Shown here: positions 34,624 to 52,677 of the stretch, in pieces | Position numbering within the stretch: position 1 is the first letter of the stretch | How the letters are laid out: each line of letters starts with the position of its first letter | DNA from: a virus | Lineage: Duplodnaviria > Caudoviricetes | Virus record (IMG/VR): IMGVR_UViG_3300037339_000563 | Coordinates: 1 to 55,380 of that record | Strand: one strand, 5' to 3' | Length of the DNA: 55,380 nucleotides | Made by a program: the position numbers and the translations under genes | The notes under the pieces: model-generated | The model's database searches: none | What the model saw: the letters and a program-made list of their open reading frames with translations, nothing else | What the model was told of the DNA's origin: nothing

Positions 34624-34792
34624 GGGGCCTCCCTCTTGGGATGACCTTGATTATGCGTACAATGCAGAGTAAAGCAAGTGTTGTCAGTAATGTAACGGTC
34701 CGTTCACCTATTAACGACGTGTAAGACACCGCTCTCTACGGATCAGTGCCGAATTAGAATTCAGACACTTACAGCTGGACATCACCTCAGCC

Positions 34793-34821
34793 TTGACTAT
34801 TTGCAGATTTTTGCGTAGAGT
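34793..34821 (+). promoter_or_regulatory. sigma70-like promoter heading the tRNA array
   Basis: TTGACT-17-TAGAGT, 6 nt before tRNA-fMet. Confidence 0.7.
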
Positions 34822-34827
34822 CTTGTC

Positions 34828-34901
34828 TGCGGAATAGAGCAGCCTGGTAGCTCGCAAGGCTCATAACCTTGAGGTCGTAGGTTCAAATCCTTCTTCCGCT
34901 A
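34828..34901 (+). tRNA. tRNA-fMet(CAT)
   Basis: cloverleaf, CAAGG-CTCATAA-CCTTG, unpaired 1:72. Confidence 0.9.
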
Positions 34902-34946
34902 CTAATCGAAGCGACAGTCAGAAACATCCAAGCAAAACGAACGGTC

Positions 34947-35117
34947 ATGTCTTCTTCATCCACCAAAACAACGCAAACCTGCCTCGGTACGAGCAATCGC
35001 TCGTGGCGTCGTGGGTTTATTGCGTTGTGCGTGGAGACCGTCGGCAGCCTGGAAACCACCCCGCGCAGCTATCACCTCCAGGCCAAGGCGAATGATCCCA
35101 GGGGGCTTCTGACATAG
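34947..35117 (+). CDS. putative attenuator leader peptide (56 aa)
   Basis: MSSSSTKTTQTCLGTSNRSWRRGFIALCVETVGSLETTPRSYHLQAKANDPRGLLT; last codons overlap the antiterminator strand; weak RBS. Confidence 0.6.
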   Translation: MSSSSTKTTQTCLGTSNRSWRRGFIALCVETVGSLETTPRSYHLQAKANDPRGLLT

Positions 35118-35180
35118 GTAGACCGAAATACCTAGACCAGAAGCCTCCAAGGAAAAACCCTTGGAGGCTTTCTTCGTTTC
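35101..35180 (+). promoter_or_regulatory. attenuator: antiterminator / intrinsic terminator
   Basis: terminator AAGCCTCCAAGG/CCTTGGAGGCTT + TCTTCGTTTC; GGGGGCTTCTG (35101-11) pairs with CAGAAGCCTCC (35138-48). Confidence 0.72.
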
Positions 35181-35181
35181 T

Positions 35182-35264
35182 GGGAGTGCGGCAACTGGCG
35201 ACGCAAGCTGGCTGTAAACCAGTCGTGTGATGAGCACTTGGAGATTCGACTTCTCCCACTCCCA
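35182..35264 (+). tRNA. tRNA-Tyr(GTA)
   Basis: GCTGG-CTGTAAA-CCAGT, long variable arm. Confidence 0.85.
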
Positions 35265-35331
35265 CTGAAAGTTTTTGCAAAGGACGAAATGACCCGAATC
35301 GCTCAAAAACAGACGCTACTTCCTCCATTTT

Positions 35332-35402
35332 GGGGTTGTAGCTCAATGGCAGAGCATCCGGTTTTTACCCGGTCGACCAGAGTTCGATTCTCTGCAGCCC
35401 TA
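35332..35402 (+). tRNA. tRNA-Lys(TTT)
   Basis: CCGG-TTTTTAC-CCGG. Confidence 0.85.
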
Positions 35403-35423
35403 CGGATACATCAGTGATTTCAT

Positions 35424-35498
35424 TCGGGATTCGTCCAATTGGCAGGACACCAGATTCTGAATCTGTGAACGGAGGTTCGACCCCTCCATCCCGAACCA
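35424..35498 (+). tRNA. tRNA-Gln(CTG)
   Basis: CAGA-TTCTGAA-TCTG, CCA encoded. Confidence 0.9.
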
Positions 35499-35627
35499 AG
35501 CCAAGGCTAAGCGCGACCGGGCATAACTTCCTCTGGAACCCCGGACAACCTTAACCGAAGCCTATGCGACCGACTCCTGATAACCGAATAGTTTTTATAG
35601 ACGCGGGGGCACGCCATGCCCCCATTT

Positions 35628-35700
35628 GCCTCGACAGCTTGCGTGGTGCAAGCGCGGGATTGAAGATCCTGAGATAGTCGTTCGACTCGACTTCGAGGCA
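35628..35700 (+). tRNA. tRNA-Phe(GAA)
   Basis: CGGGA-TTGAAGA-TCCTG. Confidence 0.8.
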
Positions 35701-35760
35701 CCCGTTCGTTTGCCGCGATAGGCATGGCTCATCAGCATGAGAAGTACCTGATGAATTTAT

Positions 35761-35826
35761 GGGACCTATTCGTCCTCAATCATCTTGTCCGGTAACGGAC
35801 CGAAGATGACGGTTATCGTCCCGCCA
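35761..35826 (+). ncRNA. permuted Y-RNA-like module closed by a mini acceptor stem ending CCA
   Basis: GGGAC...TTGTCCG-GTAA-CGGACCGA...GGTTATC-GTCCC-GCCA. Confidence 0.5.
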
Positions 35827-35827
35827 A

Positions 35828-35900
35828 GCCTCCATAGCTCAATGGATAGAGCACTCGGTTCTTACCCGATTTGTTGAAGGTTCGAGTCCTTCTGGGGGCA
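35828..35900 (+). tRNA. tRNA-Lys(CTT)
   Basis: TCGG-TTCTTAC-CCGA. Confidence 0.88.
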
Positions 35901-35935
35901 CTGCAAGTTTCTTCGATTTGTGGCATAACAGGCCA

Positions 35936-36352
35936 ATGTTCAAGGCGATCATCGTCGAATGCCGGTCACTGTGCGAGGCCGCGACGAAGGAACAAAAGAG
36001 AGCTGGACTGGAAGCGTCTTGGAAGCGCGAGAAGGCCAGCAGCACCCCAGAGCGCCTTGCCAAGGTCGGGGACAATCCAGACATAACGACGAAGCGACGG
36101 CTGACTCGACCCATGCCCGATATCACAGATATGAGGGCAAGCCTCAAGAAGAGGATCGACAAAGATCCCCAGGGTACCCATGACAGAGAGGGCTACAAGT
36201 ACCCAGCAGAGCAGAACAGGATCCACAAGTTGCCGTACGCGCAGAAGCGGTTGAGTGACTTTGAGCCACCGAGCAAGCTCCCTGCGGCAACTGCGCTTTC
36301 CAAGAAGAAGCCAGGCCTGATGTCTCGGCTGGCCAGCGTCTTCAAGAAGTAA
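35936..36352 (+). CDS. basic hypothetical protein, possible internal head protein
   Basis: MFKAIIVECR N-terminal motif shared with three other ORFs. Confidence 0.65.
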   Translation: MFKAIIVECRSLCEAATKEQKRAGLEASWKREKASSTPERLAKVGDNPDITTKRRLTRPMPDITDMRASLKKRIDKDPQGTHDREGYKYPAEQNRIHKLPYAQKRLSDFEPPSKLPAATALSKKKPGLMSRLASVFKK

Positions 36353-36436
36353 CCAAAGCTTAGGGTCTGCGCTTCATAAAACCTCGGTGGCAGCACCGAA
36401 GCCTTCAACGGTTTCCCGCAAGGGTTGAGGCGGCAT

Positions 36437-36520
36437 GGAAGACTAACTGCGGATGGCCGCAGCGCCCGTTCGAAGCGGGATGGGACCGAAAGGTCTGGGG
36501 ATCGAGACCTCAGTCTTCCG
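36437..36520 (+). tRNA. tRNA-Ser(CGA), Sec-like long D-stem
   Basis: CCCG-TTCGAAG-CGGG, variable arm, T-loop ATCGAGA. Confidence 0.78.
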
Positions 36521-36591
36521 CGATTTGGTCTTGCTGCACATTGTGTCGACGTGCGATGGCAGATTGGAAAAAAGAGCGCAGAAAACAACTT

Positions 36592-36663
36592 GGTTCATGA
36601 TGCGATAGGTATCGCAGCCTGTCTGTCTAACAGGTGAAAGGGGATCGTTACCCCTATGAACCG
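36592..36663 (+). tRNA. tRNA-Asp(GTC), atypical
   Basis: CCTGT-CTGTCTA-ACAGG, G73, T-loop ATCGTTA. Confidence 0.72.
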
Positions 36664-36667
36664 CTCT

Positions 36668-36738
36668 GGGCGTCTAGTACAACGGGAATACATTCGGCTG
36701 GCAGCCGAATGATCAGGGTTCAACTCCCTGGATGTCCA
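36668..36738 (+). tRNA. tRNA-Ala(GGC)
   Basis: TTCGG-CTGGCAG-CCGAA, G3:U70. Confidence 0.88.
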
Positions 36739-36743
36739 CAAAC

Positions 36744-36812
36744 GGGGAAGCCATCGGGATGGAACACTGCCTTGCACGCAGAGCCTCGTGGGTTCAACTC
36801 CCATCTTCTCCA
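36744..36812 (+). tRNA. tRNA-Ala(TGC), short D-arm
   Basis: CTGC-CTTGCAC-GCAG, G3:U70. Confidence 0.75.
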
Positions 36813-36817
36813 CAAAC

Positions 36818-36888
36818 GGGTCCATCGTATAACGGGCGTATATTCGGATCGCACCCGAAAGATCGGAGTTCAAATCTCCGTGGATCCA
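36818..36888 (+). tRNA. tRNA-Ala(CGC)
   Basis: TTCGG-ATCGCAC-CCGAA, G3:U70. Confidence 0.82.
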
Positions 36889-36937
36889 CAAATGGAAAGC
36901 AAAACGGCTAGGGCGCGAGTCCCGTTAAGACCGCCTT

Positions 36938-37006
36938 GGGCTGGCCTGAAGGCAGGAGCACTCCCTTGCAAGGAGAGCCATTGGGGAGCGTTACCCCTCC
37001 GGTCCA
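36938..37006 (+). tRNA. tRNA-Ala(TGC), atypical D/T loops
   Basis: CTCC-CTTGCAA-GGAG, G3:U70, T-loop AGCGTTA. Confidence 0.65.
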
Positions 37007-37102
37007 CGAACTGATCCGCCAATCCCGTTCCTAGGCATTCTAGAACGCCTAAGCAGGGCACCACTCATCCAACTCTGAATTGGACGTGGGAGGATCAAAC
37101 AC

Positions 37103-37188
37103 GGAAAGTGGTCTAGCTGTGGAGCTAGCGCGGTTTGCTAAACCGATGGAACCCTAACGGGTTTGAGGTTCGACCCCTCCTCTTTCCG
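37103..37188 (+). tRNA. tRNA-Ser(GCT)
   Basis: CGGT-TTGCTAA-ACCG, variable arm. Confidence 0.85.
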
Positions 37189-37228
37189 CCCAGATGCGCG
37201 ATTGATCTGACTGTGCGATCATTCGCCC

Positions 37229-38272
37229 ATGGCGCTGGTAACCATCACGAATCTCACGGGCAATGTGGTCCTCCTCCAGGAGCTATACCGCAACGTGAAA
37301 CCGTACGAGGCGTTCACGATTACCCGCGAAGAAGACCAGCTTCACGCCATGCCCGAATTCCAGAAGTATTGGAACGACGGCGTCATTCAAGTCTCGGTGG
37401 TCAAGGACGCCGCCGAGGACAACTTCATCACCACGTTCCTGCACTCGGTGGGTCCGGCTGCGCTAACTCCTAATCCGCCGCTCAATGTCACGAAGTCAGC
37501 GGCAGCCGTCGGGGTGGAGAGCCTAGCTGCCAGGGGAGACCACAAACACGATGTCTCAACCGCCGGGGCTGTTGAGATTACCGATTCAACAAACGCCGAA
37601 GGAACCGCAACCAGCCTATCCAGGTCTGATCACCAGCACGCCCACGGCAATCGAGCCGGCGGAACCCTTCACTCCGTGGCGACCACTTCTGTGGCTGGGT
37701 TCATGTCCGCTGCGGACAAGACGATCATCAGCGGTTTGCCGACTGTCGTTGCCAACGCCGAGGCAACCAGAACCTATCACGAGTCCATCGTTCGCGCCGA
37801 ATCCGGGGCAAATGCACCAGGCCAACAACCAGACCTAGAGGTCATCAGCGACACGATCGTTGCCGAATTTACGCTCAACACCGACTCCGCCTATCGGCTG
37901 TTCAAGATCCCCGCCTACTACGTCACCGGAGCCGCCTTCCACGCTCACTGGACCAAGGAATCCGGGATCGCAGGGAACGGCAATGAATTAGGCAACTCGG
38001 TCCGATGGAGGGTTAGCTATAAGGTCTGGGCCGGCGAGGGCACGGACATCAATGTGGCGCCTACCGTTGTTGATCTGGATGACACCTACACCGATGGCGG
38101 CTCAACCACGAGAATCACGCAGCGAACCGCCAATGTGGCTGCCCCTGGTTTCATTGCAAATTACTACCTAAGCCTCAAGGTGGAAGCTGTTACCCCGGCG
38201 GGAACGGCGCTAACCTGCGAACCGGCGCTGATCAGCATCGATCTGACCTTCACCGAATACATCAATCAGTAA
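37229..38272 (+). CDS. virion structural protein (tail-fibre-like)
   Basis: ARGDHKH / SRSDHQHAH His motifs, GFMSAADK, beta-rich C-terminus. Confidence 0.65.
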   Translation: MALVTITNLTGNVVLLQELYRNVKPYEAFTITREEDQLHAMPEFQKYWNDGVIQVSVVKDAAEDNFITTFLHSVGPAALTPNPPLNVTKSAAAVGVESLAARGDHKHDVSTAGAVEITDSTNAEGTATSLSRSDHQHAHGNRAGGTLHSVATTSVAGFMSAADKTIISGLPTVVANAEATRTYHESIVRAESGANAPGQQPDLEVISDTIVAEFTLNTDSAYRLFKIPAYYVTGAAFHAHWTKESGIAGNGNELGNSVRWRVSYKVWAGEGTDINVAPTVVDLDDTYTDGGSTTRITQRTANVAAPGFIANYYLSLKVEAVTPAGTALTCEPALISIDLTFTEYINQ

Positions 38273-38274
38273 CC

Positions 38275-38290
38275 GCGCAAGCGCTTGCGC
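38275..38290. repeat. dispersed 16-bp palindrome GCGCAAGCGCTTGCGC
   Basis: exact copies at 38275, 40737, 49968; near copies at 26222, 12044, 11502, 3795. Confidence 0.8.
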
Positions 38291-38379
38291 CGCTCCTCCC
38301 GGCGGGAACTGGAGCCAATAGGAAGAGGAAATGCTTCTGATCGGGGCGCTGGATGCGGGTTCGACTCCCAAGGGCGGCA
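38289..38379 (+). ncRNA. degenerate tRNA-like element
   Basis: GCCGCTC/GGGCGGC-A acceptor stem and GGG-TTCGACT-CCC, no recognisable anticodon arm. Confidence 0.4.
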
Positions 38380-38384
38380 TTTTT

Positions 38385-38459
38385 CTGGGTGTGGTGAAGC
38401 GGTATCACGCGCCGTTCGGGACGGCGAAAACGCAGGTTCGATCCCTGTCACCCAGACCA
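38385..38459 (+). tRNA. tRNA-Pro(CGG)
   Basis: GCCG-TTCGGGA-CGGC, CCA. Confidence 0.9.
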
Positions 38460-38495
38460 TCCGTGAAGACGGAGCGAGATAAAATCTCGTAAATT

Positions 38496-38567
38496 GCGGA
38501 CGAGGTGGCTTGGTGCCACGCCAGCTTGCCAAGCTGGTTCAGGCGGGATCGTTCCCCGTCGTCCGCT
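38496..38567 (+). tRNA. tRNA-Gly(GCC)
   Basis: CCAGC-TTGCCAA-GCTGG, U73, T-loop ATCGTTC. Confidence 0.8.
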
Positions 38568-38593
38568 CGACGGCTTGTCAATTAAGCCATTAT

Positions 38594-38667
38594 GGTGTTC
38601 ATAGTGTAGCGGCTCTGCACGTCTGTTTGTGGAACAGGAAGTTCGGGTTCGACCCCCGATGGACACC
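38594..38667 (+). tRNA. tRNA-His(GTG)
   Basis: G-1:C73, CTGT-TTGTGGA-ACAG. Confidence 0.88.
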
Positions 38668-38771
38668 CAAGAAAATGCACATCTGTCCTCTGGAAATTCT
38701 CGCTGCGCTCTCGGCAATCACTGGAGTTCGATTTGCCTGGGCGTGGTTGAAGTGCAAGCTTGTTACTGTAC

Positions 38772-38844
38772 GCGGATGAGGCCGACTGGTGAGGCAGGTG
38801 CCTTCCAAGCATCTACAGGCTGGGTTCGATTCCCGCCATCCGCT
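38772..38844 (+). tRNA. tRNA-Gly(TCC)
   Basis: GGTGC-CTTCCAA-GCATC. Confidence 0.85.
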
Positions 38845-38852
38845 CCGATATT

Positions 38853-38925
38853 GCCCACGTAGCATAGTGGCGACTGCACCTCTTTCGTAAAGAGGGGATC
38901 GCGAGTTCGAGTCTCGCCGTGGGCT
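38853..38925 (+). tRNA. tRNA-Thr(CGT)
   Basis: CCTCT-TTCGTAA-AGAGG. Confidence 0.9.
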
Positions 38926-39102
38926 CTAGGTCTCGGACGACGGCTCATTGATCGAAGGGATCTCCTTCATCTTCTCCCTTGAGAGCGTCCAGGCGCGCTG
39001 GACCACCCAAGAGAGCGAGCGGTCCAGGCGGGTGGCTTCGGCCTGGACCTCCGCCAGCATGTCTTCTGGGAAGTAGAGGCTCTGCTTTCTCTTGTCGTTC
39101 AT
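38926..39102 (-). CDS. MXAN_4361/MXAN_4362-like (TIGR04563) small RHH protein
   Basis: DKRKQSLYFPEDMLAEVQAEATRLDRSLSWVVQRAW; TATGTT-6-ATG. Confidence 0.85.
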   Translation of the reverse strand: MNDKRKQSLYFPEDMLAEVQAEATRLDRSLSWVVQRAWTLSREKMKEIPSINEPSSET

Positions 39103-39123
39103 GGCAGTAACATACACAATTAT

Positions 39124-39199
39124 TCGGGAATGGTGTAATCGGCAACATCCTCGGCTTTGACCCGAGAGAGTCCAGGTTCGACCCCTGGTTCCCGAACCA
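39124..39199 (+). tRNA. tRNA-Gln(TTG)
   Basis: CTCGG-CTTTGAC-CCGAG, CCA. Confidence 0.9.
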
Positions 39200-39203
39200 A
39201 GCC

Positions 39204-39277
39204 GCCTCCAAAGCATTACGGCGATGCACCGAGCCTGTACCTCGGAGATCTCGGTTCGATCCCGGGTGGAGGCTCCA
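39204..39277 (+). tRNA. tRNA-Thr(TGT), C33
   Basis: CCGAG-CCTGTAC-CTCGG, CCA. Confidence 0.78.
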
Positions 39278-39336
39278 AGCGAACTACTAGGCTGGAACAA
39301 TGCCCGGGAGTGATCGAAAGGTCCGGTTCGCCCTAT

Positions 39337-39409
39337 TCCAGGAAAGGCCATTTGGTGAGCCGCGTAGCTGTTAACTACGTGCTGGCAGGTTCGAACCCTG
39401 CTCCTGGAG
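39337..39409 (+). tRNA. tRNA-Asn(GTT)
   Basis: CGTAG-CTGTTAA-CTACG. Confidence 0.85.
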
Positions 39410-39416
39410 CGACTTT

Positions 39417-39488
39417 GCACTCGTAGCGATTTGGTAATGCGCCGGTCTGTTAAACCGAAAGAATTGGGTTCGATCCCCAACGAGTGCG
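39417..39488 (+). tRNA. tRNA-Asn(GTT), second copy
   Basis: CGGT-CTGTTAA-ACCG. Confidence 0.8.
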
Positions 39489-39564
39489 CGACTTCGTGTC
39501 GACCTGGGCCGGTAACGTCGACTACATGGGTTCAATTCCCGTGATCGCCACGAGTCACTTTTTC

Positions 39565-39633
39565 GAGTGAGCCGAATGAGTCAGGGTTATCAAATTGGTT
39601 GAAACGCCCCTGATTCGACAAAATTGTTCACTC
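39565..39633 (+). ncRNA. Y-RNA-like element 1
   Basis: GAGTGAGCCGA...GGTTATC...TTGTTCACTC. Confidence 0.6.
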
Positions 39634-39637
39634 ATTT

Positions 39638-39713
39638 GACCCTATCCTCCAACTGGCCAGGAGAGCCGATTCTCAGTCGGTCAATCGGGGCTCGAATCCC
39701 CGTAGGGTCGCCA
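39638..39713 (+). tRNA. tRNA-Glu(CTC)
   Basis: GCCGA-TTCTCAG-TCGGT, CCA. Confidence 0.87.
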
Positions 39714-39777
39714 GGTGAGCCGGAGACTGTGGGTTATCACTTGTAATGAACCTCCCACCGTCAACAAATTGTTCACC
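39714..39777 (+). ncRNA. Y-RNA-like element 2
   Basis: GGTGAGCCGG...GGTTATC...TTGTTCACC. Confidence 0.6.
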
Positions 39778-39784
39778 ATCTTTT

Positions 39785-39854
39785 TCTGCGAGCCGTTCGA
39801 ACCTTGGTTATCACATTTAATGATCGCTCCAAGGTTCATCTTCTTGTTCGCGGA
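39785..39854 (+). ncRNA. Y-RNA-like element 3
   Basis: TCTGCGAGCCG...GGTTATC...TTGTTCGCGGA. Confidence 0.6.
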
Positions 39855-39859
39855 TTTTT

Positions 39860-39934
39860 GCACGCATAGCCAAGTGGTAAGGCACTGGTCTGCAAAACCA
39901 GGAGCGACGGGTTCAACTCCCTCTGCGTGCTCCA
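39860..39934 (+). tRNA. tRNA-Cys(GCA)
   Basis: CTGGT-CTGCAAA-ACCAG, U73, CCA. Confidence 0.9.
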
Positions 39935-39950
39935 TTGACAATTGCCTCTT

Positions 39951-40026
39951 GGCCCTATAGTACAGTGGTAAGTATCCTGGTCTTTCACACCAGAGACGCA
40001 GGGTTCAATTCCCTCTAGGGCCACCA
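39951..40026 (+). tRNA. tRNA-Glu(TTC)
   Basis: CTGGT-CTTTCAC-ACCAG, CCA. Confidence 0.87.
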
Positions 40027-40071
40027 TGACCATCCAGACTCCCATCGGAGAGATAGAGGCCTAACGATTTA

Positions 40072-40133
40072 GGTGAGCCGGAGTTCAAGGGTTATCACCA
40101 TAACAATTCCCCTTGGACAACCATTTGTTCACC
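40072..40133 (+). ncRNA. Y-RNA-like element 4
   Basis: GGTGAGCCGG...GGTTATC...TTGTTCACC. Confidence 0.6.
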
Positions 40134-40141
40134 GTTTTTTT

Positions 40142-40204
40142 TAGCGAGCCGAAGTGGTTGGGTTACCATCAAAAACATACCCAGTCACAACTCCTTGTTC
40201 GCTA
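40142..40204 (+). ncRNA. Y-RNA-like element 5
   Basis: TAGCGAGCCGA...GGTTACC...TTGTTCGCTA. Confidence 0.6.
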
Positions 40205-40211
40205 TTTTTTT

Positions 40212-40276
40212 AGATGAGCCGGAGCTATTGGGTTACCTTGAAAATGTAACACCCAGAAGCAACCACTTGTTCATCT
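40212..40276 (+). ncRNA. Y-RNA-like element 6
   Basis: AGATGAGCCGG...GGTTACC...TTGTTCATCT. Confidence 0.6.
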
Positions 40277-40283
40277 GCTTTTT

Positions 40284-40355
40284 GCACGAGTAGTTCAGCG
40301 GAAGAATACTGCGTTGACATCGCAGAGATCGTCGGTTCGATCCCGACCTCGTGTA
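40284..40355 (+). tRNA. tRNA-Val(GAC)
   Basis: CTGCG-TTGACAT-CGCAG. Confidence 0.9.
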
Positions 40356-40360
40356 CTTTT

Positions 40361-40567
40361 GCCCCTGTGGCCAAGTGGTTAAGGCGCTTGATCAAGCATG
40401 CAGCTCATTAGTGCGGCACGAAGAGATCGATCGTCTCTTACGGCTGTACTGACCGGGCGAGTCGTACGGAGGTAGATCGCCTCCAAGTGGTCTGGATTGA
40501 TCATCCAGATTGCTGCACACGATGCATGACGAATTGAGAGACGTCGGTTCAATCCCGACCAGGTGCA
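40361..40567 (+). ncRNA. tRNA scaffold with 140-nt multibranch insert replacing the anticodon loop
   Basis: intact acceptor, D and T arms; CTTGAT/ATTGAG stem encloses nested stems and GAT-loop hairpins. Confidence 0.7.
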
Positions 40568-40577
40568 GGCAATTTCA

Positions 40578-40652
40578 GCCCACGTGGCGCAACGATAGCG
40601 CACTCCGTTGGTATCGGAGAGGTTGCGGGTTTGATTCCCGCCGTGGGCTCCA
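40578..40652 (+). tRNA. tRNA-Thr(GGT)
   Basis: CTCCG-TTGGTAT-CGGAG, CCA. Confidence 0.85.
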
Positions 40653-40931
40653 ATAGAACGCACTCAGGCTGCTCGTCGATGTGGCTGAACGGAGGAGAAA
40701 TTCCGAACAGCATCGAGCACTCCTCACGCGATAACGGCGCAAGCGCTTGCGCTGATCGGACCTAGGGTCCCGCGTACATTGAACATCCGGGGCGGCGGCC
40801 CCTCTTTTCTTCTCGGTTCTTTACCAGACGAGGGTAGATCCCGGAGCCAGCCTTAGTAGTTGGACGGGTCTGGTTGATGAAAGTCAGCGTCCGATAAGCA
40901 CTTCGGCCGTGAAGAATCGAGACCTTTTCCT

Positions 40932-41006
40932 GACTCCATAGCTCAACGGATAGAGTACTCGGCTACGAACCGAGCGATCAAAGTTCAAATCTTTGTGGAG
41001 TCACCA
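40932..41006 (+). tRNA. tRNA-Arg(ACG)
   Basis: CTCGG-CTACGAA-CCGAG, CCA. Confidence 0.92.
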
Positions 41007-41007
41007 T

Positions 41008-41079
41008 GCATCCATCGTCCAGCAGATAGGATAAATCCCTCCGAAGGATTCGACCCAGGTGCAATTCCTGGTGGATGCA
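41008..41079 (+). tRNA. tRNA-Arg(CCG)
   Basis: AATCC-CTCCGAA-GGATT. Confidence 0.82.
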
Positions 41080-41089
41080 CGAACGATAT

Positions 41090-41160
41090 AGGGCGCCCGC
41101 TGGGCGGGGATTGGTCTCCAAATCCGATCTTGCAGAGTTCAATTCTCTGGCGCCCTGCCA
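41090..41160 (+). tRNA. tRNA-Trp(CCA), short D-arm
   Basis: loop CTCCAAA, AGGGCGC/GCGCCCT-GCCA. Confidence 0.78.
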
Positions 41161-41163
41161 AAC

Positions 41164-41235
41164 CCTCCCTTAGCTCAATGGCAGAGCGGTTGGCATATAA
41201 CCGACGGGTTGGGGGTTCGAATCCTCCAGGGAGGA
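41164..41235 (+). tRNA. tRNA with TAT anticodon (Ile-UAU candidate), A33
   Basis: GTTGG-CATATAA-CCGAC. Confidence 0.65.
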
Positions 41236-41772
41236 CTAGTACTCGCCCTCGTAATAACCGTGACGACGGGCGATGAGGCGATGCCCGCGAGCGAGGGTCT
41301 TGTACTTGTCGTGCTCGCCGCCATGATGACCGGCTTCTTTTTCTGCACCAGCGCCACTGTGATGGCTGCTCATTCGCTCATGGGCGTCTGCAACATGGCT
41401 GCACACCTTGGAGGCGAGCACGTGCGCGGGTCCGCACATCCGCTTCGTGCCATGAGCGTGAGCAGAAAGCTTCTCAGCGTAGCTGCCGAGTGTTGCGAGG
41501 TCGTGGGCATCGACGACTCCAGCGTCACCCTCTCCCTTGCCGTAGCCCTTCGTAAAATGGACGCTCAAGTGGGGCAACATCTTTCGCATCTGACGACGAG
41601 AAAGGTGAGCGGGATCCATGCTCAGCAACTTGCCGACCTTGTAGGCGGCGCGGTCCATTTTGCTCAGCCTGACTGATTTATAAGAGGCGCCCGGATCTTT
41701 GTTATCCGGCTCCGGCGTCTCCTCGTTCTCGAAAAGAGCGGCGCGGCACTCGTTGATCAGCGACCTAAGCAT
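41236..41772 (-). CDS. His-rich hypothetical protein, possible internal head protein
   Basis: MLRSLINECR N-terminal motif; codon bias favours minus strand. Confidence 0.7.
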   Translation of the reverse strand: MLRSLINECRAALFENEETPEPDNKDPGASYKSVRLSKMDRAAYKVGKLLSMDPAHLSRRQMRKMLPHLSVHFTKGYGKGEGDAGVVDAHDLATLGSYAEKLSAHAHGTKRMCGPAHVLASKVCSHVADAHERMSSHHSGAGAEKEAGHHGGEHDKYKTLARGHRLIARRHGYYEGEY

Positions 41773-41867
41773 GCCCCATGAATACTACAGGTTGGGCAGA
41801 TCTGACAACCGAGCCTTCTTGACAATGACGGGCCCTGCGGGTACTTGCAGCATGTAGCAACAACTGC

Positions 41868-41939
41868 GGGCCCTTAGCTCAACAGTAGAGCGTGCGACTC
41901 ATAATCGCTTGGTCGTTGGGGCAGCACCAACAGGGCCCA
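41868..41939 (+). tRNA. tRNA-Ile2(CAT)
   Basis: GGGCCCT acceptor, GCGA-CTCATAA-TCGC; atypical T-loop. Confidence 0.78.
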
Positions 41940-42000
41940 CGAATGCGCGAAATCTTTCAGATCTATGACGTGATTGCCCGGAAGATGGAACTCGTATAAC

Positions 42001-42073
42001 GGCAGCGACCTGCGGGTCAGGACGACGGTTTCATAAGCCGTTCGATGCAAGGGCTCGAATCCCTCCGCTGCCA
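42001..42073 (+). tRNA. tRNA-Met(CAT), elongator, atypical D-arm
   Basis: ACGGT-TTCATAA-GCCGT. Confidence 0.75.
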
Positions 42074-42075
42074 CG

Positions 42076-42357
42076 ATGGCTACTAGAGAACAGATCCAGT
42101 CCTACTTCGAGGAATGCCATGGCGAAGAGGAGTTCCTCCTCGCCGACGGATTTGAGAACGCCTTCATCGGCGTCGTCTACGGCAAGATGCGCGAACCGGT
42201 CGCTTGCTACGACCGCAAGAAATGCATCTCCATCCTGATCGCCAGGGACGGCATGACCGAAGAAGACGCCGAAGAGTTCTTCAGCTTCAACGTCGACGAC
42301 GCCTGGATGGGCGAAAAGACTCCGATGTTTCTAGATACCTTTGAACCGATGGTGTAG
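42076..42357 (+). CDS. conserved phage hypothetical protein
   Basis: ADGFENAFIG...YDRKKCI...EDAEEFFSFNV..AWMGEKTP. Confidence 0.8.
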   Translation: MATREQIQSYFEECHGEEEFLLADGFENAFIGVVYGKMREPVACYDRKKCISILIARDGMTEEDAEEFFSFNVDDAWMGEKTPMFLDTFEPMV

Positions 42358-42469
42358 TGGCAGCACAATCAAAAACCCGTTTTTCAATCAATTGCTCGCG
42401 CAAGCGAGCCGGCCGAGAAATGGTTACCCATGCAAGGGATAGACGCTGGTTCGATTCCGGCTCGGTTCA
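42343..42469 (+). ncRNA. tRNA / Y-RNA chimera 1
   Basis: tRNA acceptor, D, T arms with TTGCTCGC-GCAA-GCGAGCCG...GGTTAC insert. Confidence 0.65.
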
Positions 42470-42480
42470 CGATTCGTTAT

Positions 42481-42608
42481 TGCGCGATAGTTTAGTGGCA
42501 AAACACCTAAACCCGTCTTTCGCCAAAATTGTTCGCTTCGGCGAGCCGATTGAGGGATGGTTACCGACTCATAATCGGGTGTCGCATGTTCGATTCATGC
42601 TCGCGCAA
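42481..42608 (+). ncRNA. tRNA / Y-RNA chimera 2 (retains CAT anticodon hairpin)
   Basis: TTGTTCGC-TTCG-GCGAGCCGA...GGTTA then CCGA-CTCATAA-TCGG. Confidence 0.65.
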
Positions 42609-42617
42609 CTAGTTTAT

Positions 42618-42678
42618 GCTCCCTGGATCAGACACTGGCCAGTGGCCTGCTCGATCGGCGGGTTGAAGGGGAGCACCA
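42618..42678 (+). ncRNA. acceptor-stem-capped small RNA ending ACCA
   Basis: GCTCCCT/GGGGAGC-ACCA enclosing two hairpins, one with TCGATCG loop. Confidence 0.5.
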
Positions 42679-42697
42679 TATCAGTGTAAAGTGCGAC

Positions 42698-43126
42698 ATG
42701 CACTTCAGGAGCCTGATCGAAAGCGTTCGCAGCGCAATTGGCACCAAGTGGCACAGGCCAGATCTTGATGTCGAACACGACGAGATCAAGAGAACCGCCA
42801 AGGAGCTTGGCATTCATCATGACAAGCTGAGAAAGGCCGTCGAGGCAGGACGATTGGGGAAGCTTGGTGAAAAACACTGGGCGAACATGGACAACACCGA
42901 CTCCCACGGGACGGATACGGTTCGAAAGGCGAACAAGAAGGCCAAGGAGTACGGCAGAGACATCGGATCTATACACAAGGCGCTGAAGTCAGGAACCAGC
43001 CTTCCGGCTCCGATCGTGCTCCACCGTAAAGGCGAGAAGCCTTATCTGATCGGCGGAAATACACGATTGATGGCAGCACGCGCGCACGGTCATCAGCCGC
43101 GCGTTCTCAAGGTCCATCTAAAATAA
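42698..43126 (+). CDS. ParB/Srx-like domain protein
   Basis: LPAPIVL...YLIGGNTRLMAA. Confidence 0.75.
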   Translation: MHFRSLIESVRSAIGTKWHRPDLDVEHDEIKRTAKELGIHHDKLRKAVEAGRLGKLGEKHWANMDNTDSHGTDTVRKANKKAKEYGRDIGSIHKALKSGTSLPAPIVLHRKGEKPYLIGGNTRLMAARAHGHQPRVLKVHLK

Positions 43127-43130
43127 TTCT

Positions 43131-43205
43131 CGGGGTGAAGTCGCGTTGGTGTGACACTTGGTTTGGGACCAAGACCCTAGGCAGGTTCGACTCCTGTCAC
43201 CCCGA
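43131..43205 (+). tRNA. tRNA-Pro(TGG)
   Basis: CTTGG-TTTGGGA-CCAAG. Confidence 0.85.
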
Positions 43206-43212
43206 CTGTTCT

Positions 43213-43284
43213 CCCCCGATGGCTCAATGGTTAGAGCGCACGCTTGATAAGCGTGACATGCAGATTCGATTTCTGCTCGGGGGA
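43213..43284 (+). tRNA. tRNA-Ile(GAT)
   Basis: CACGC-TTGATAA-GCGTG. Confidence 0.87.
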
Positions 43285-43290
43285 CCTCAC

Positions 43291-43420
43291 GGGTAAGTAG
43301 CTCAGTTGGTAGAGCACCGGTCAAAAACGCCGTCTTTCACCCCATGTTCGCGCAAGCGAGCCGAAGAAAAATGGTTACCAGGAACCGGGTGTCGCGAAGT
43401 TCGACTCTTCGCCTTATCCA
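43291..43420 (+). ncRNA. tRNA / Y-RNA chimera 3
   Basis: canonical D arm, CCGGT/ACCGG stem enclosing TGTTCGC-GCAA-GCGAGCCGA...GGTTACC, T arm. Confidence 0.65.
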
Positions 43421-43426
43421 CTATTC

Positions 43427-43455
43427 TTGACAATGCTGATGACGTCACTTAAGGT
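43427..43455 (+). promoter_or_regulatory. sigma70-like promoter
   Basis: TTGACA-17-TAAGGT. Confidence 0.7.
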
Positions 43456-43632
43456 GCCTTCAGCTCGGTCGTGTGCCACAAGGCTGTTTGGTGGTAGCTG
43501 TCCGTGGGCCGAGTCTAAACAAGTCATCCACAACCACCGTTTCATCGAAAGCCAAGGAATCACCAATGCGTCTCTCTATTGAAAATACAAGTAACTGCAC
43601 AAGGTTATCTGTAAATTCAACAGGAGATCCAC

Positions 43633-44466
43633 GTGAGCACCAAGGATATTTCTCGCTCTGCCCTTGAAGGGGGCAGAAACACCGGCAACAAGTGGGAGCG
43701 CAACGAATCCCACCGGCACGAGCGCAGCCGCGCGAGGGTCTGGCTGGACACCGTTCGCTTCGATGACGAGGCCGCCGATGATTCGGCTCCGGCCCCGCGC
43801 AACCCTGTCAGCAAGGGTTTCACCGACAAGCTCAACCCCTGCTACCGCTGGCTCGCCAGCCACTGCGGTCAGCCCTGGGACAACGTCTTCAGCAAGCTCG
43901 CCAGCACGTTCGACACGCGCAAGCTGAGCGCCTGGCACATCGTCAAACAGCATATGTTGACCGACGTCCAGGGGGCTGGCACCGCGCGAGATGGCTTCGC
44001 TGGCATCTTCGGCGGCTACCACCGCTTCTACATCGACGGCGATGGCCTCCTCCGGGACAACGGCAAGCGCGCCTGGCGGAACCGCAAGGTCGAGCACAAG
44101 GGCCCCTCGAAGGAGTCTGTCTTCGCCTACGCCAAGGGCCGCAAGGTGTTTGACCACCACAGTGGCTTCAGGCAGTGGGCGCTTCCCGGTCCTGGCGAGT
44201 GGCAGTCCTGCAAGGCCATCAAGGGTCGCTGCTCGATTCCCGGTCACCTGCACCGCAAGGTGGAGACGACGTCCGCCGCTCTGGTCGAGAAGTACAAGCT
44301 GTCCGGGTTCCGCACCCTGGGGGAGGGCGACTGGTGGCGCGCTTTCGCTACCGAGCACTTCGTCTCCCAGTCCTGGCGGGCCCACAAGAAGTTCACCAAA
44401 GTGGAACTCAAGTGGTGGGAGTCGATTAGCTATGATATCCGTGGCTTGCTTTACGTTCCGCGCTGA
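43633..44466 (+). CDS. basic hypothetical protein
   Basis: AGGAG RBS, strong codon bias, 277 aa. Confidence 0.8.
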   Translation: MSTKDISRSALEGGRNTGNKWERNESHRHERSRARVWLDTVRFDDEAADDSAPAPRNPVSKGFTDKLNPCYRWLASHCGQPWDNVFSKLASTFDTRKLSAWHIVKQHMLTDVQGAGTARDGFAGIFGGYHRFYIDGDGLLRDNGKRAWRNRKVEHKGPSKESVFAYAKGRKVFDHHSGFRQWALPGPGEWQSCKAIKGRCSIPGHLHRKVETTSAALVEKYKLSGFRTLGEGDWWRAFATEHFVSQSWRAHKKFTKVELKWWESISYDIRGLLYVPR

Positions 44467-44499
44467 AAATTAGACAATCAGGCGGAAGCCTGAGAATCT

Positions 44500-44570
44500 G
44501 CTCCCATAGCACAATGGTAGTGCGACGGTTTTACATGCCGTTGACGATGGTTCGATTCCTTCTGGGAGCA
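44500..44570 (+). tRNA. tRNA-Val(TAC)
   Basis: ACGGT-TTTACAT-GCCGT. Confidence 0.87.
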
Positions 44571-44575
44571 CCGAG

Positions 44576-44842
44576 ATGACGATTCAAGAGAAGGTTAAGA
44601 CAATGCACTTCCGTATGGCGGAGATGCGAGACAGCGCTAAGAGCGAGCGCAAGGCACGTTGCTTCGCACTCCTGCATGATGCTGTCGTTCACACAGGGCA
44701 TCGCATTGATAACCTGAACAACGATTCGCTCATCGGATTCATCGAATTGGCCGCCCGTACGGTCTCAGAGCCGGACATGAACGACCGGATGCTTCGTGAT
44801 AAGCTCGTCGCCATGGGCTTCAACACGGCCCCAGTCAATTGA
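44576..44842 (+). CDS. hypothetical protein
   Basis: 88-aa ORF. Confidence 0.6.
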   Translation: MTIQEKVKTMHFRMAEMRDSAKSERKARCFALLHDAVVHTGHRIDNLNNDSLIGFIELAARTVSEPDMNDRMLRDKLVAMGFNTAPVN

Positions 44843-45042
44843 GGCGAATGGCCAAGAGTAAGATCATGACTGAAGTTCCTCGCAGTGTGCTTGAGGCAAC
44901 CGCTCAAGTTCTTGGGCCGACGTCAGCTGCCGCTCGCGCCTTGGCTGATGCCGATGCCCACGATGGCGAGACGAAGTTCTTTCGTCATGGCGCACAGATT
45001 ATGGTCAAGATGATCGCCTTACCCGTGGGCCGCTGGAACTAG
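44839..45042 (+). CDS. hypothetical protein
   Basis: small ORF, start uncertain. Confidence 0.5.
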   Translation: MRRMAKSKIMTEVPRSVLEATAQVLGPTSAAARALADADAHDGETKFFRHGAQIMVKMIALPVGRWN

Positions 45043-45047
45043 CAGAC

Positions 45048-45122
45048 GCCCGCGTAGCTCAATTTGGTAGAAGCATCCCGCTTAAGACGGGTTCAGTGCC
45101 GGTTCGAGTCCGGTCGTGGGTA
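45048..45122 (+). tRNA. tRNA-Leu(TAA), short variable loop
   Basis: CCCG-CTTAAGA-CGGG. Confidence 0.82.
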
Positions 45123-45130
45123 CGATTTTT

Positions 45131-45213
45131 GTCGACGTGGCGTAATTTGGTAGCCGCGCTGCGCTTAGGACGCAGTCCCGCAAGGGGTAGGAGTTCAAAT
45201 CTCCTCGTCGACA
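45131..45213 (+). tRNA. tRNA-Leu(TAG)
   Basis: CTGCG-CTTAGGA-CGCAG, variable arm. Confidence 0.9.
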
Positions 45214-45234
45214 CTAGACTGATTTTGTTGGGGT

Positions 45235-45263
45235 TTGACTTCGCAGATCTGATGGCATAGTTT
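45235..45263 (+). promoter_or_regulatory. sigma70-like promoter, leaderless transcript
   Basis: TTGACT-17-TAGTTT-6-ATG. Confidence 0.68.
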
Positions 45264-45269
45264 CAGTTC

Positions 45270-45476
45270 ATGTTTCGTGAACTTATCGAAGCCATCCGAC
45301 TCGAAGGCGCTGCACGTGGAGCCATTGATAAGTGGAGCAAGCCGGGCGAAGGCGTGAAGCTCGCTAAGAAAAGCGTGACCCGATACCTGCGCCAGAAGAC
45401 GAAATTAGAACTCAAGAAGAAGGCTCCCGACGAGGTCAACATTCCTCGTCGCGGAACCAGCGGGTACGAGTCTTAA
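45270..45476 (+). CDS. small basic protein, possible internal head protein
   Basis: MFRELIEAIRLE N-terminal motif. Confidence 0.65.
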   Translation: MFRELIEAIRLEGAARGAIDKWSKPGEGVKLAKKSVTRYLRQKTKLELKKKAPDEVNIPRRGTSGYES

Positions 45477-45561
45477 GTCATCGTGGTGGAATTGGTAGGC
45501 ACGCCAGCTTGAGGTGCTGGTGCCGCAAGGCGTGGGGGTTCGACTCCCCCCGATGACACCA
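45477..45561 (+). tRNA. tRNA-Leu(GAG)
   Basis: CCAGC-TTGAGGT-GCTGG, CCA. Confidence 0.92.
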
Positions 45562-45806
45562 TGAAAGAGAAATCAATCGTCGATACGATTGCAGAGATGG
45601 CCGCTGAACTGCCGAAGAGAGATCTTCGTGCTCTTGAGCGGAAGGATATCGCCATGATGAAGGCGCTGGAACAGCAAGCCATCGCAAGGGTTAAGGCAGA
45701 ATGTCATCCAGACGTCTCCTGCCCGAACTGCAACATCCCACTGATCCCAGAGCACGCGCACGCAAAGTGCCCGAAGTGTCACTACAGAGATTCTTGCTGC
45801 TTCTAA
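45561..45806 (+). CDS. small Zn-ribbon protein
   Basis: CPNC...CPKC. Confidence 0.55.
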   Translation: MKEKSIVDTIAEMAAELPKRDLRALERKDIAMMKALEQQAIARVKAECHPDVSCPNCNIPLIPEHAHAKCPKCHYRDSCCF

Positions 45807-46141
45807 TGAAGGAACACCGTCGAGTAATCGTCGAGTCGCCCTATGCCGGCGACATCGCAACCAACCTCCGATACCTGCGGGCATGCCTGCGCGACTGCCT
45901 GCTGCGAGGTGAGGCACCGTTCGCCAGCCACGGCCTGTACACGCAGGAGGGTGTGCTGGACGACCAGATTCCAGAAGAGCGAGTTCACGGCATCGAAGCT
46001 GGGTTCGCATGGCGCTCAGCGGCCGAGGCAACCGTGGTCTATATCGACCTTGGAATTAGCAACGGCATGACCTACGGTATTTCTCATGCAAATAAGAACG
46101 GTCAACCGGTGGAATATCGAACAATAGAGGGCTGGGCGTAG
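45806..46141 (+). CDS. DUF4406-like / nucleoside deoxyribosyltransferase-fold protein
   Basis: VIVESPYAGD...GEAPFASHGLY...GISNGM. Confidence 0.75.
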   Translation: MKEHRRVIVESPYAGDIATNLRYLRACLRDCLLRGEAPFASHGLYTQEGVLDDQIPEERVHGIEAGFAWRSAAEATVVYIDLGISNGMTYGISHANKNGQPVEYRTIEGWA

Positions 46142-46143
46142 AC

Positions 46144-46452
46144 ATGGGCTGGGCTCAGGAATACATCAGCAAGCTTGTGGCGGGGACGATGGTTCGCTTC
46201 CGACCTCGCGGCAACAGCATGACGGGCAAGGTAAACAACGGCGACCTCGTCACAGTCGTTCCGGTTGACGCCGCCACCGAGCTAACAACCGGAGACATTG
46301 TTCTCTGCCGAGTCAGCGGTCGTGAATACCTCCATCTCATCAAGGCCGTTGGCGCCGATGGTCGCTTCCAGATTGGGAACAATCGCGGCGGCATCAACGG
46401 GTGGACGAGCAGGAGCAGCGTCTTCGGGCGTTGCATCAAAATTGAGAAGTAG
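46144..46452 (+). CDS. S24/S26 peptidase-like protein
   Basis: RPRGNSM, GDIVLC, YLHLIKA. Confidence 0.75.
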   Translation: MGWAQEYISKLVAGTMVRFRPRGNSMTGKVNNGDLVTVVPVDAATELTTGDIVLCRVSGREYLHLIKAVGADGRFQIGNNRGGINGWTSRSSVFGRCIKIEK

Positions 46453-46454
46453 GG

Positions 46455-46483
46455 TTGACAGCTCGCGCAGGCAGACCTAAGGT
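46455..46483 (+). promoter_or_regulatory. sigma70-like promoter
   Basis: TTGACA-17-TAAGGT. Confidence 0.7.
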
Positions 46484-46539
46484 TGATTCCACGATGACTT
46501 CCCGAGCTTGACACTTCGAGTGCGCCGCAGGCCGCGTGG

Positions 46540-46893
46540 TTGCCTGTAAGTCCAGAGGACGCTCCGGTTCTTGCCGTCGAGCATGTCCTCTACCACTACT
46601 GCATCGGTCGCCTCGATGTTCCCATCGGTGACCTCTGCGCCCAGCTGATTCACGCAGCCGGGGAGAGCAGTCCGGGTAATCTTCCGCCGGAAACCCGTGC
46701 GGTTGCGCTTGGTGCTCGTAGCGAATTCGAGCTGTTGAAGCTCGAACAGAAGCTCAAGAAGAAGAACATTCCACATGTGGCCATCCGAGAACCGGATGAG
46801 CCGTTTTGTGGCCAGCTTATGGCTATCGGCATCGCTCCGTGCGACCGATCTCTAGTCAAGAAGGAGGTGAGTAATTTCCCCCTCCTGAAATGA
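46540..46893 (+). CDS. peptidyl-tRNA hydrolase PTH2-like protein
   Basis: RLD...AQLIHAA, IREPD, AIGIAP, FPLL; start uncertain. Confidence 0.8.
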   Translation: MPVSPEDAPVLAVEHVLYHYCIGRLDVPIGDLCAQLIHAAGESSPGNLPPETRAVALGARSEFELLKLEQKLKKKNIPHVAIREPDEPFCGQLMAIGIAPCDRSLVKKEVSNFPLLK

Positions 46894-46898
46894 CATAT

Positions 46899-46979
46899 GG
46901 ATCGGTAGCTCAACGTAGAGCGCCAGGATCTGATGCAAGTCAGAGCTTGGAGATGGTGGTGCAAGTCCATCCCGATCCG
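46899..46979 (+). ncRNA. anticodon-less tRNA mimic 1
   Basis: anticodon arm extended: TCTGAT-GCAA-GTCAGA. Confidence 0.65.
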
Positions 46980-46984
46980 CGTAC

Positions 46985-47077
46985 GCGGAGGTAACTCAGA
47001 GAGCCCTTTTTATCGGGGGCCAGGAAGAGTACCGAGGGTAACCTTGGGAGTCGGTGGTTCGAGTCCATCCCTCCGCA
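46985..47077 (+). ncRNA. anticodon-less tRNA mimic 2
   Basis: hairpin inserted in D-loop; CCGAGG-GTAA-CCTTGG tetraloop arm. Confidence 0.65.
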
Positions 47078-47081
47078 CTAC

Positions 47082-47170
47082 GCCGGATAGCATAAATCGA
47101 TAAATGCGCCCTACCCGCCCTCGTGGTGGCCATGGGAGATGCTGTGGTTTGATTCCCAGTTCCGGCACCA
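47082..47170 (+). ncRNA. anticodon-less tRNA mimic 3
   Basis: GCCGGA/TCCGGC-ACCA, D arm, extended central arm. Confidence 0.55.
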
Positions 47171-47191
47171 ACCTAAGTTACGATGGGACCC

Positions 47192-47401: not shown

Positions 47402-47462
47402 CAAGTCCTTATTCCGGCACCAATTTTGACAATCAAATCACGTAATGAGAAGATTGATTCAT

Positions 47463-47536
47463 GATTGCGTAGCTCAACGGCAGAGCATCCAGGCTTAAGC
47501 AACCGGAGGACGCGGGTTCGACTCCCGTCGCATTCG
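47463..47536 (+). ncRNA. tRNA-like element with distorted anticodon arm
   Basis: canonical D/T arms; TCC-A-GG-CTTAAGCAA-CC-GGA. Confidence 0.55.
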
Positions 47537-52494: not shown

Positions 52495-52677
52495 ATGAAA
52501 AAAGATGTGCAGCTCCACAAGTCGACCGAGGACCAGCCTTGCCATTGGTGCAAGGCTGGTTTCATTTTTGTCGCCGACCAGGCGCTCGGAACTGGCAAGA
52601 CCATTCTCTGTGAGCCGCACACGAATCAGTTCATGACCACGTTCCATGAGCCAGATCAGCAAGTTGCGTCAGATTAG
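52495..52677 (+). CDS. small hypothetical protein
   Basis: CHWC...LCEPH. Confidence 0.5.
   Translation: MKKDVQLHKSTEDQPCHWCKAGFIFVADQALGTGKTILCEPHTNQFMTTFHEPDQQVASD

Follow-up and report, generated by a model that had tools for sequence, protein, structure and literature searches.

What decides when a phage transcribes a large set of tRNA genes is the question raised by this locus. The role and timing of such sets are debated, the proposals being that they compensate for codon usage, replace host tRNAs that have been degraded or evade defences that cleave tRNAs (PMC10264068). The viral DNA analysed here (the window, 55,380 bases in full; estimated completeness, 38%) carries its genes up to 34623 on the minus strand and a tRNA array on the plus strand from 34828 to 52492, in which ARAGORN called 38 tRNAs and Rfam added 3 more. 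Judging from the sequence and its relatives, we think it somewhat probable that a translation-coupled transcription attenuator heads this array and gates at least 29 of its tRNA genes. The original prediction had placed a promoter, tRNA-fMet, a short open reading frame (ORF), a terminator hairpin and tRNA-Tyr in that order at this site, and every element was found:

34793..34821, plus strand: sigma-70-like promoter (TTGACT, 17 nt, TAGAGT), 6 nt 5' of tRNA-Met and present in all relatives
34828..34902, plus strand: initiator-like tRNA-Met (CAT; ARAGORN; Rfam, 61.1 bits), which precedes the switch in the transcript
34903..34946, plus strand: A/C-rich, G-poor leader, predicted to be unstructured, with no Shine-Dalgarno motif
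34947..35117, plus strand: leader ORF of 56 codons, with an ATG start and a TAG stop within the inner hairpin
34968..35028, plus strand: conserved hairpin in the ORF (columns 73-133 of alignment A4; 24 pairs in two helices)
35032..35100, plus strand: second predicted stem domain in the ORF (A4 columns 137-217; 17 pairs; nearly invariant blocks)
35101..35148, plus strand: putative antiterminator (outer helix, 35101-35111/35138-35148; inner hairpin, 35115-35120/35130-35135)
35140..35171, plus strand: putative intrinsic-terminator hairpin (13 bp, 6-nt loop)
35172..35181, plus strand: T-rich tail, which is the 5' leader of tRNA-Tyr, T-rich in 5/5 complete relatives
35182..35265, plus strand: tRNA-Tyr (GTA), the first tRNA past the switch (ARAGORN, relaxed threshold)

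The ORF, reported earlier as missing from the ORF track, was present and was listed once the minimum length was set to 20 amino acids. The terminator hairpin was present with its T-rich tail, 10 nt 5' of tRNA-Tyr, but its stem measured 13 bp in our scan and not the 12 bp first given. The leader that follows tRNA-Met is about 235 nt long; its first 83 nt (34903-34985) are composed of A31 C26 G12 T14, and columns 1-72 of alignment A4 were unpaired in the consensus fold. The first acceptor pair of tRNA-Met was marked as non-standard in the Rfam alignment, and three G-C pairs were read in the anticodon stem of the tRNA-Met sequences of relatives L010 and L007; this tRNA is probably an initiator tRNA. 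The tRNA-Tyr of the window was called neither by default ARAGORN nor by Rfam. At the homologous site in relatives, default ARAGORN did make the call, and the copies of the window and of L006 differed by 3 mismatches.

The reach of a switch at this position depends on the other terminator and promoter-like sites of the window, which were as follows:

52530..52562, plus strand: terminator of 13 bp, directly 3' of the last tRNA, which ends at 52492
34793, 43427, 45235 and 46455, plus strand: promoter-like motif sites (motif scan)
19267, 22792, 23676, 27540 and 32612, minus strand: promoter-like motif sites (motif scan)

Between 33.5 and 53 kb, 13-bp plus-strand terminators were limited to the leader terminator and the one at 52530..52562, the latter likely marking the end of array transcription. 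The promoter-like motif family (TTGAC, 17 to 19 nt, TAnnnT; mostly TTGACA and TAGnnT) had 9 sites, compared with 2.4 expected from shuffles. After 34793, the nearest plus-strand site was 43427, and the 28 ARAGORN tRNAs at 35332-43286, plus tRNA-Tyr, had no recognizable promoter of their own. Transcription of tRNA-Tyr and these 28 tRNAs would thus depend on read-through of the leader terminator, and at least 29 tRNA genes would be gated by the switch.

Homologues were sought in viral, metagenome and genome contigs and by two protein searches. Five distinct DNA homologues were found besides the window (L006, L010, L012, L007 and L015), together with five members known as peptides only (P0001-P0005), giving a family of 11 peptides of 56 to 61 residues, with identities to the peptide of the window from 89% to 40%. 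L006 shares its contig with L005 and L009, and L007 with L003 and L014; L011 has the sequence of L010 over the printed region and was counted together with it. A second contig, that of L004, L008 and L013, gave match statistics equal to those of L007. Since L012 ends after the inner hairpin, the five complete homologues used for folding are the window, L006, L010, L007 and L015. The promoter, tRNA-Met and an ORF that begins at the same ATG and ends at the same TAG within the inner hairpin recurred in every DNA homologue, that is, in 5/5 distinct relatives other than the window, and the terminator hairpin followed by tRNA-Tyr-Lys-Gln-Phe-Lys was kept in the five complete homologues. The comparisons draw on only three to four independent lineages.

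Other searches and candidates added little to this family. A profile search of 1.84 billion proteins returned only two further members and one spurious repeat protein, P0006, which was rejected. Scans of viral contigs with P0005 and P0004 gave no new locus, and at the DNA level tRNA-Met alone was matched among 50,697 phage records. L016, on an Acidobacteriota MAG contig, was rejected as a chance match to the antisense strand of another gene. L002, initially taken for a relative whose leader differs, is instead a deletion that joins 34890, within tRNA-Met, to about 38905; it lacks the leader together with some 4 kb of tRNAs, making the element dispensable in L002. The ends of this deletion lie in the tRNA-Met and tRNA-Thr(CGT) region (L002 3545-3796, minus strand of the locus), and its junction was called as a 94-nt hybrid tRNA, with loss of leader, terminator and the first tRNAs.

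The leader is predicted to adopt two competing structures. The 3' strand of the antiterminator is the 5' arm of the terminator in all five complete relatives, the strand common to both being 35140-35148, and the antiterminator 5' strand (35101-35111) coincides with codons 52 to 55 of the ORF. The stop follows 3 nt further on, in a position relative to the antiterminator helix that was constant in 6/6 sequences. The classical attenuator anatomy originally described, with a common strand and a TAG just past the antiterminator 5' strand, was thus seen in all five. When the nascent prefix was folded up to the end of the terminator 5' arm, the antiterminator was predicted in 5/5 complete homologues (−28.8 to −35.6 kcal/mol), as a long hairpin with an outer helix of 10 to 12 pairs round the inner hairpin. 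In the window (−29.7 kcal/mol) this fold contained the alternative pairing of 35101-35111 with 35138-35148 round the inner hairpin, as had been claimed. A ribosome covers about 15 nt on each side of its P site. When positions P−15 to P+15 at the stop codon were held unpaired, the terminator was predicted in 5/5 complete homologues.

At equilibrium, mean pair probabilities in the window were 0.49 and 0.45, so that the two states were nearly balanced; L010 preferred the antiterminator, and L007 and L015 preferred the terminator. RNAalifold selected the antiterminator unprompted when given the whole leader. The claim that the two structures are mutually exclusive held for the 9 nt common to both (35140-35148), but at equilibrium 4 bp of the outer helix persisted beside the terminator. 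The 96-nt region 35090-35185 folded more stably than 200/200 shuffles (z = −4.76).

Both helices showed paired substitutions among relatives. The outer helix of the antiterminator (9 pairs) was paired in 100% of cells, with double changes in 5 pairs (slid controls, 26 to 50% paired), and the terminator (13 pairs) in 96.9% of cells, with double changes in 3 (slid controls, 35 to 79%). One position of the common strand, U in the window and A in L010, was followed by both of its partners, the upstream strand changing from G to U and the 3' arm of the terminator from A to U. These covariation counts, from 5 to 6 sequences in three to four lineages, favour both helices and are suggestive rather than conclusive, since related sequences may beat shuffles even where no structure exists. 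In the inner hairpin, 6/7 pairs were invariant across 6 sequences and the loop varied in length.

Structure was also conserved within the ORF, where 41 pairs were predicted with 91.1% of cells paired. The first hairpin (34968-35028) was paired in 91 to 92% of cells, with 4 pairs changed on both sides; the second stem domain (35032-35100) had no pair with a double change, so that the structure there is without covariation support. Although the ORF-internal hairpins were conserved, none was predicted to pair with the antiterminator 5' strand, as an anti-antiterminator (1:2) hairpin would. The tip of the first hairpin (34982-34997) is a perfect 16-nt palindrome in L010, L012, L007 and L015; the window and L006 have a 6-bp stem closed by a 4-nt loop there, and the stem codons Thr-Ser ... 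Ser-Trp are invariant. At the gathering score, Rfam matched only tRNAs in the whole window, and over 34700-35400 at E values up to 1 it matched tRNAs and two sub-threshold hairpins only. A T-box, the known amino-acid leaders and ribozymes were therefore rejected as the identity of the element.

We next considered whether, and as what, the leader ORF is read. Its ATG and TAG were invariant in 6/6 DNA homologues, and its frame was stop-free in 6/6, each other frame being stopped in at least 4/6 sequences, which by itself discriminates weakly. In a nucleotide alignment made without regard to codons, indel blocks had a length that was a multiple of 3 in 4/4 cases in the ORF (9, 3, 3 and 3) versus 2/13 in the flanks (1, 1, 5, 2, 3, 1, 2, 2, 3, 4, 1, 1 and 2; hypergeometric P = 0.006). 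These frame-preserving indels argue for the ORF being read. The dN/dS of the leader ORF was 0.32 to 1.01 (15 pairs) and that of the adjoining 109-codon gene 0.22 to 0.39. Variable columns were spread over the three codon positions as 25/22/28 of 56 in the leader ORF, without the third-position excess found in the adjoining gene (28/26/50 of 106). Conservation in the ORF took the form of blocks that were invariant at all three codon positions and were able to pair with each other. Such a pattern is expected where in-frame translation to that stop outweighs the peptide itself, and the leader ORF looks translated without looking protein-like. Searches of two of the peptides against Pfam and PHROGs gave no family match at E values up to 1, and AlphaFold modelled the peptide with low confidence (mean pLDDT, 55.5; pTM, 0.22). 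No Shine-Dalgarno motif was found 5' of the ATG in any homologue; the same scan found one in 20/41 minus-strand ORFs and none in 21/41. The A/C-rich, G-poor first 83 nt after tRNA-Met, which are predicted to be unpaired, would favour initiation. Codon adaptation of the leader was unexceptional at 0.663, which places it at the 10th percentile of gene windows, and 48/55 of its codons are readable by tRNAs of the array, a share about as in phage genes.

The leader was also present in RNA libraries. An RNA-library contig matched 34943-35157 exactly, which shows presence only. Exact cover ended at 35134 and 35157 in two RNA runs, both of one study, and no exact contig from the RNA runs extended over tRNA-Tyr. 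The break was rejected as a transcript 3' end because a DNA-run contig breaks at 35157 too, and an assembly effect of the inverted repeat is its most likely cause. In run X5, the contig carried, at 34943, 8 unmatched purine-rich letters just 5' of the ATG region; they hint at a variant with a Shine-Dalgarno-like leader, and as a single contig end may be an artefact.

From these data we infer a mechanism in which the ORF is translated, the hairpin terminates transcription and the position of the ribosome decides the outcome. Transcription would begin at the conserved promoter, making the initiator-like tRNA-Met first and then the leader with its ORF of 56 to 61 codons. The RNA of the last codons would serve as the 5' strand of the antiterminator, and the 3' strand of the antiterminator as the 5' arm of the intrinsic terminator. 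A ribosome close behind the polymerase, on the last codons or on the TAG, would cover the 5' strand, so that the terminator forms and transcription stops before the array. With no initiation, a lagging ribosome or an earlier stall, the antiterminator would form first, with read-through into at least 29 tRNA genes. Faltering protein synthesis would in this way turn on the tRNA genes of the phage. The best match of the large terminase among the 50,697 phage records was only 37% identical, so that tight coupling of transcription to translation in the host is not to be assumed.

The original prediction went further and read the leader as a pan-amino-acid sensor of global tRNA supply. All 20 amino acids and 39 distinct codons were indeed counted in the leader ORF of the window, and the six DNA members had 38 to 41 distinct codons. 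The caveat that this codon diversity is near random expectation did not stand, in that 56-codon windows of the phage's own genes averaged 32.4 distinct codons (SD, 3.1) and 1.7% of 925 reached 39. For a random 56-mer, the chance of containing all 20 amino acids was 0.046 to 0.078, depending on the null. All 20 were present in 11/11 family peptides, with turnover of their positions, which lends this part of the prediction independent support. The 16 invariant columns of the alignment supply only 12 amino acids; variable columns supply the other eight (Cys, Phe, His, Ile, Lys, Leu, Arg and Tyr), of which Cys, His, Tyr, Lys, Phe and Ile occupy columns that differ among lineages. In 20,000 within-column shuffles, all 11 peptides were complete in none and four representatives were all complete in 123; this shuffle ignores relatedness among what are three to four partly independent lineages and so overstates significance. 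We therefore prefer, as the cautious figure, the chance of completeness per independent lineage, which was 0.075 to 0.10 with phage composition (0.18 to 0.24 with the composition of the family's variable columns).

The sensor claim fared less well in the placement of the codons, since Asp was confined to the last 8 codons in 7/11 members, as was Asn in 3 of those 7. A stall at this end of the ORF would probably cover part of the antiterminator 5' strand and not free it. An N-terminal run of four Ser codons was present in 6/11 members and missing or interrupted in the others; besides this, no conserved regulatory codon run was found among the 11 members. A role of the leader as a pan-amino-acid gauge of decoding capacity is in our view plausible but less likely than not. 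With at least one codon per amino acid, shortage or cleavage of any tRNA, through host anticodon nucleases or phage-induced decay of host tRNAs, would delay the leading ribosome, and the antiterminator would then turn on the near-complete tRNA set of the phage itself. With decoding restored, ribosomes would again arrive at the stop early enough for the array to be shut off. If true, this would provide a homeostatic, self-limiting tRNA supply and would be the first known attenuator controlling tRNA genes.

Some of the same observations can be read in other ways. The invariant blocks of the ORF and the never-varying inner stem hint at recognition at the RNA level, which would be superfluous in a pure ribosome model, and together with the conserved ORF-internal structure they leave room for a nonribosomal effector. 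Taken to its conclusion, this becomes a structured RNA switch whose antiterminator is stabilized or disrupted in trans by a protein of the phage or host, by a tRNA or by a small ligand, the ORF being incidental or secondary. The inner hairpin, with 6/7 stem pairs invariant in 6 sequences round a loop of variable length, fits such a switch, as do the mutually pairable blocks invariant at all codon positions (41 pairs, 91.1% of cells paired), the leader without a Shine-Dalgarno motif and the peptide without a family or a confident fold. Yet indels in multiples of 3 (4/4 in the ORF versus 2/13 outside) and an invariant ATG and TAG point to reading of the ORF, retention of all 20 amino acids in 11/11 peptides would serve no purpose in an untranslated RNA, no Rfam family, T-box included, matched at E values up to 1, and the second ORF-internal stem domain (17 pairs) lacked double changes. 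We regard a factor-operated switch as unlikely.

If the ORF is read, it might simply encode a small phage protein and be followed by a partly leaky terminator belonging to that gene, and the alternative helix would be nonregulatory. Small ORFs are frequent in phage tRNA regions, and this one is kept in 11 family members, with 16 invariant alignment columns, and is predicted by gene callers elsewhere. Its dN/dS of 0.32 to 1.01 and absent third-position excess, compared with the adjoining gene, speak against an ordinary protein gene, as do the poor AlphaFold model (mean pLDDT, 55.5; pTM, 0.22) and the absence of Pfam and PHROGs matches, and such a gene would account neither for an antiterminator helix with double changes in 5/9 pairs nor for the fixed place of the stop codon relative to it in 6/6 sequences. 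This makes a mere protein gene quite improbable. Less probable still are hairpins that act in RNA processing or stability without any transcription switch, for example as a 3' protective stem on the leader fragment after an RNase P cut at tRNA-Tyr or as an RNase III site. The end of the hairpin, 10 nt from the mature 5' end of tRNA-Tyr, is well placed for such a role, and an RNA-library contig matched the leader exactly; however, a conserved, covarying alternative pairing on the same 5' arm would be superfluous for a stability stem, and the T-rich tail kept in 5/5 relatives is that of intrinsic terminators.

A translation-coupled attenuator, which we favour, has its nearest counterparts in the leader-peptide attenuators of amino-acid operons (trpL, hisL, leuL, thrL and pheL, and also pheM before pheST). 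As in trpL-type attenuators, a short leader ORF precedes an antiterminator and an intrinsic terminator with a common strand, and the position of the leading ribosome is proposed to select the structure, with termination favoured when it is at the stop. Unlike these, the leader has 56 to 61 codons with all 20 amino acids and no run of codons for a single amino acid, and no 1:2 hairpin was found, so that read-through is to be expected of a leader without translation. The element regulates tRNA genes and not enzyme genes, is carried by a phage and matched no Rfam leader family. The pyrBI and pyrE attenuators of Escherichia coli sense the closeness of the ribosome to the polymerase, over a leader of 44 codons in pyrBI. 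Here too, how tightly the two are coupled along a rather long ORF, which ends 22 nt from the terminator arm, would be the signal, and not a particular codon run. The proposed sign is reversed, however, since a close ribosome blocks the terminator in pyrBI and pyrE, giving read-through, and would block the antiterminator here.

With T-box riboswitches (RF00230), the element shares a long structured leader, a competing antiterminator and terminator and a tie to tRNA status. It had no Rfam match at E values up to 1, a frame-preserving ORF has no T-box counterpart, and no Stem I, specifier loop or T-box bulge was seen on reading the leader sequence. Small ORFs with Cys codons are reported to signal cleavage of tRNA-Cys by the VapC4 toxin in Mycobacterium tuberculosis (Barth et al. 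2021, cited in PMC10264068). The likeness is one of concept, in that damage to a tRNA would show itself through ribosomes stalled on a small ORF upstream, whereas that system concerns one amino acid and a cellular stress regulon. The anatomy is thus that of a leader-peptide attenuator, yet outside every described family, and its distinctive set of features is the absence of a codon run, a long all-20 leader, no anti-antiterminator, tRNA targets and a phage carrier.

No attenuator or leader ORF ahead of a phage tRNA array was found in full-text searches of largely open-access literature. A switch that ties array expression to translation performance would give the debate on phage tRNA sets a testable regulatory logic, would widen leader-peptide attenuation from one amino acid at a time to decoding as a whole and would supply a compact natural sensor of translation speed.

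Several other features of the array were observed. A 210-amino-acid protein encoded within it (49038-49670, plus strand) has an RF-1 domain (Pfam, 9.6e-30) and resembles the C-terminal half of release factor 1 (prfA, 173 bits, profile positions 165-340 of 361; cutoff, 423 bits). TAG is read by RF1 only, and the stop of the leader ORF is always TAG. An HNH endonuclease gene (47693-48232, plus strand; Pfam HNH_5, 3.2e-15) lies among the tRNA genes. Plus-strand tRNA matches from Rfam without an ARAGORN call were found at 42343-42469, 41868-41939 and 46899-46979, and the first of these, at 127 nt, may contain an insert or intron. ARAGORN also called a tRNA with a four-base anticodon (taag) at 47463-47537 on the plus strand (Rfam, 34.8 bits). 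Its end runs into tRNA-Leu(caa), which begins at 47536, and it may be either a tRNA resembling a frameshift suppressor or a degenerate copy.
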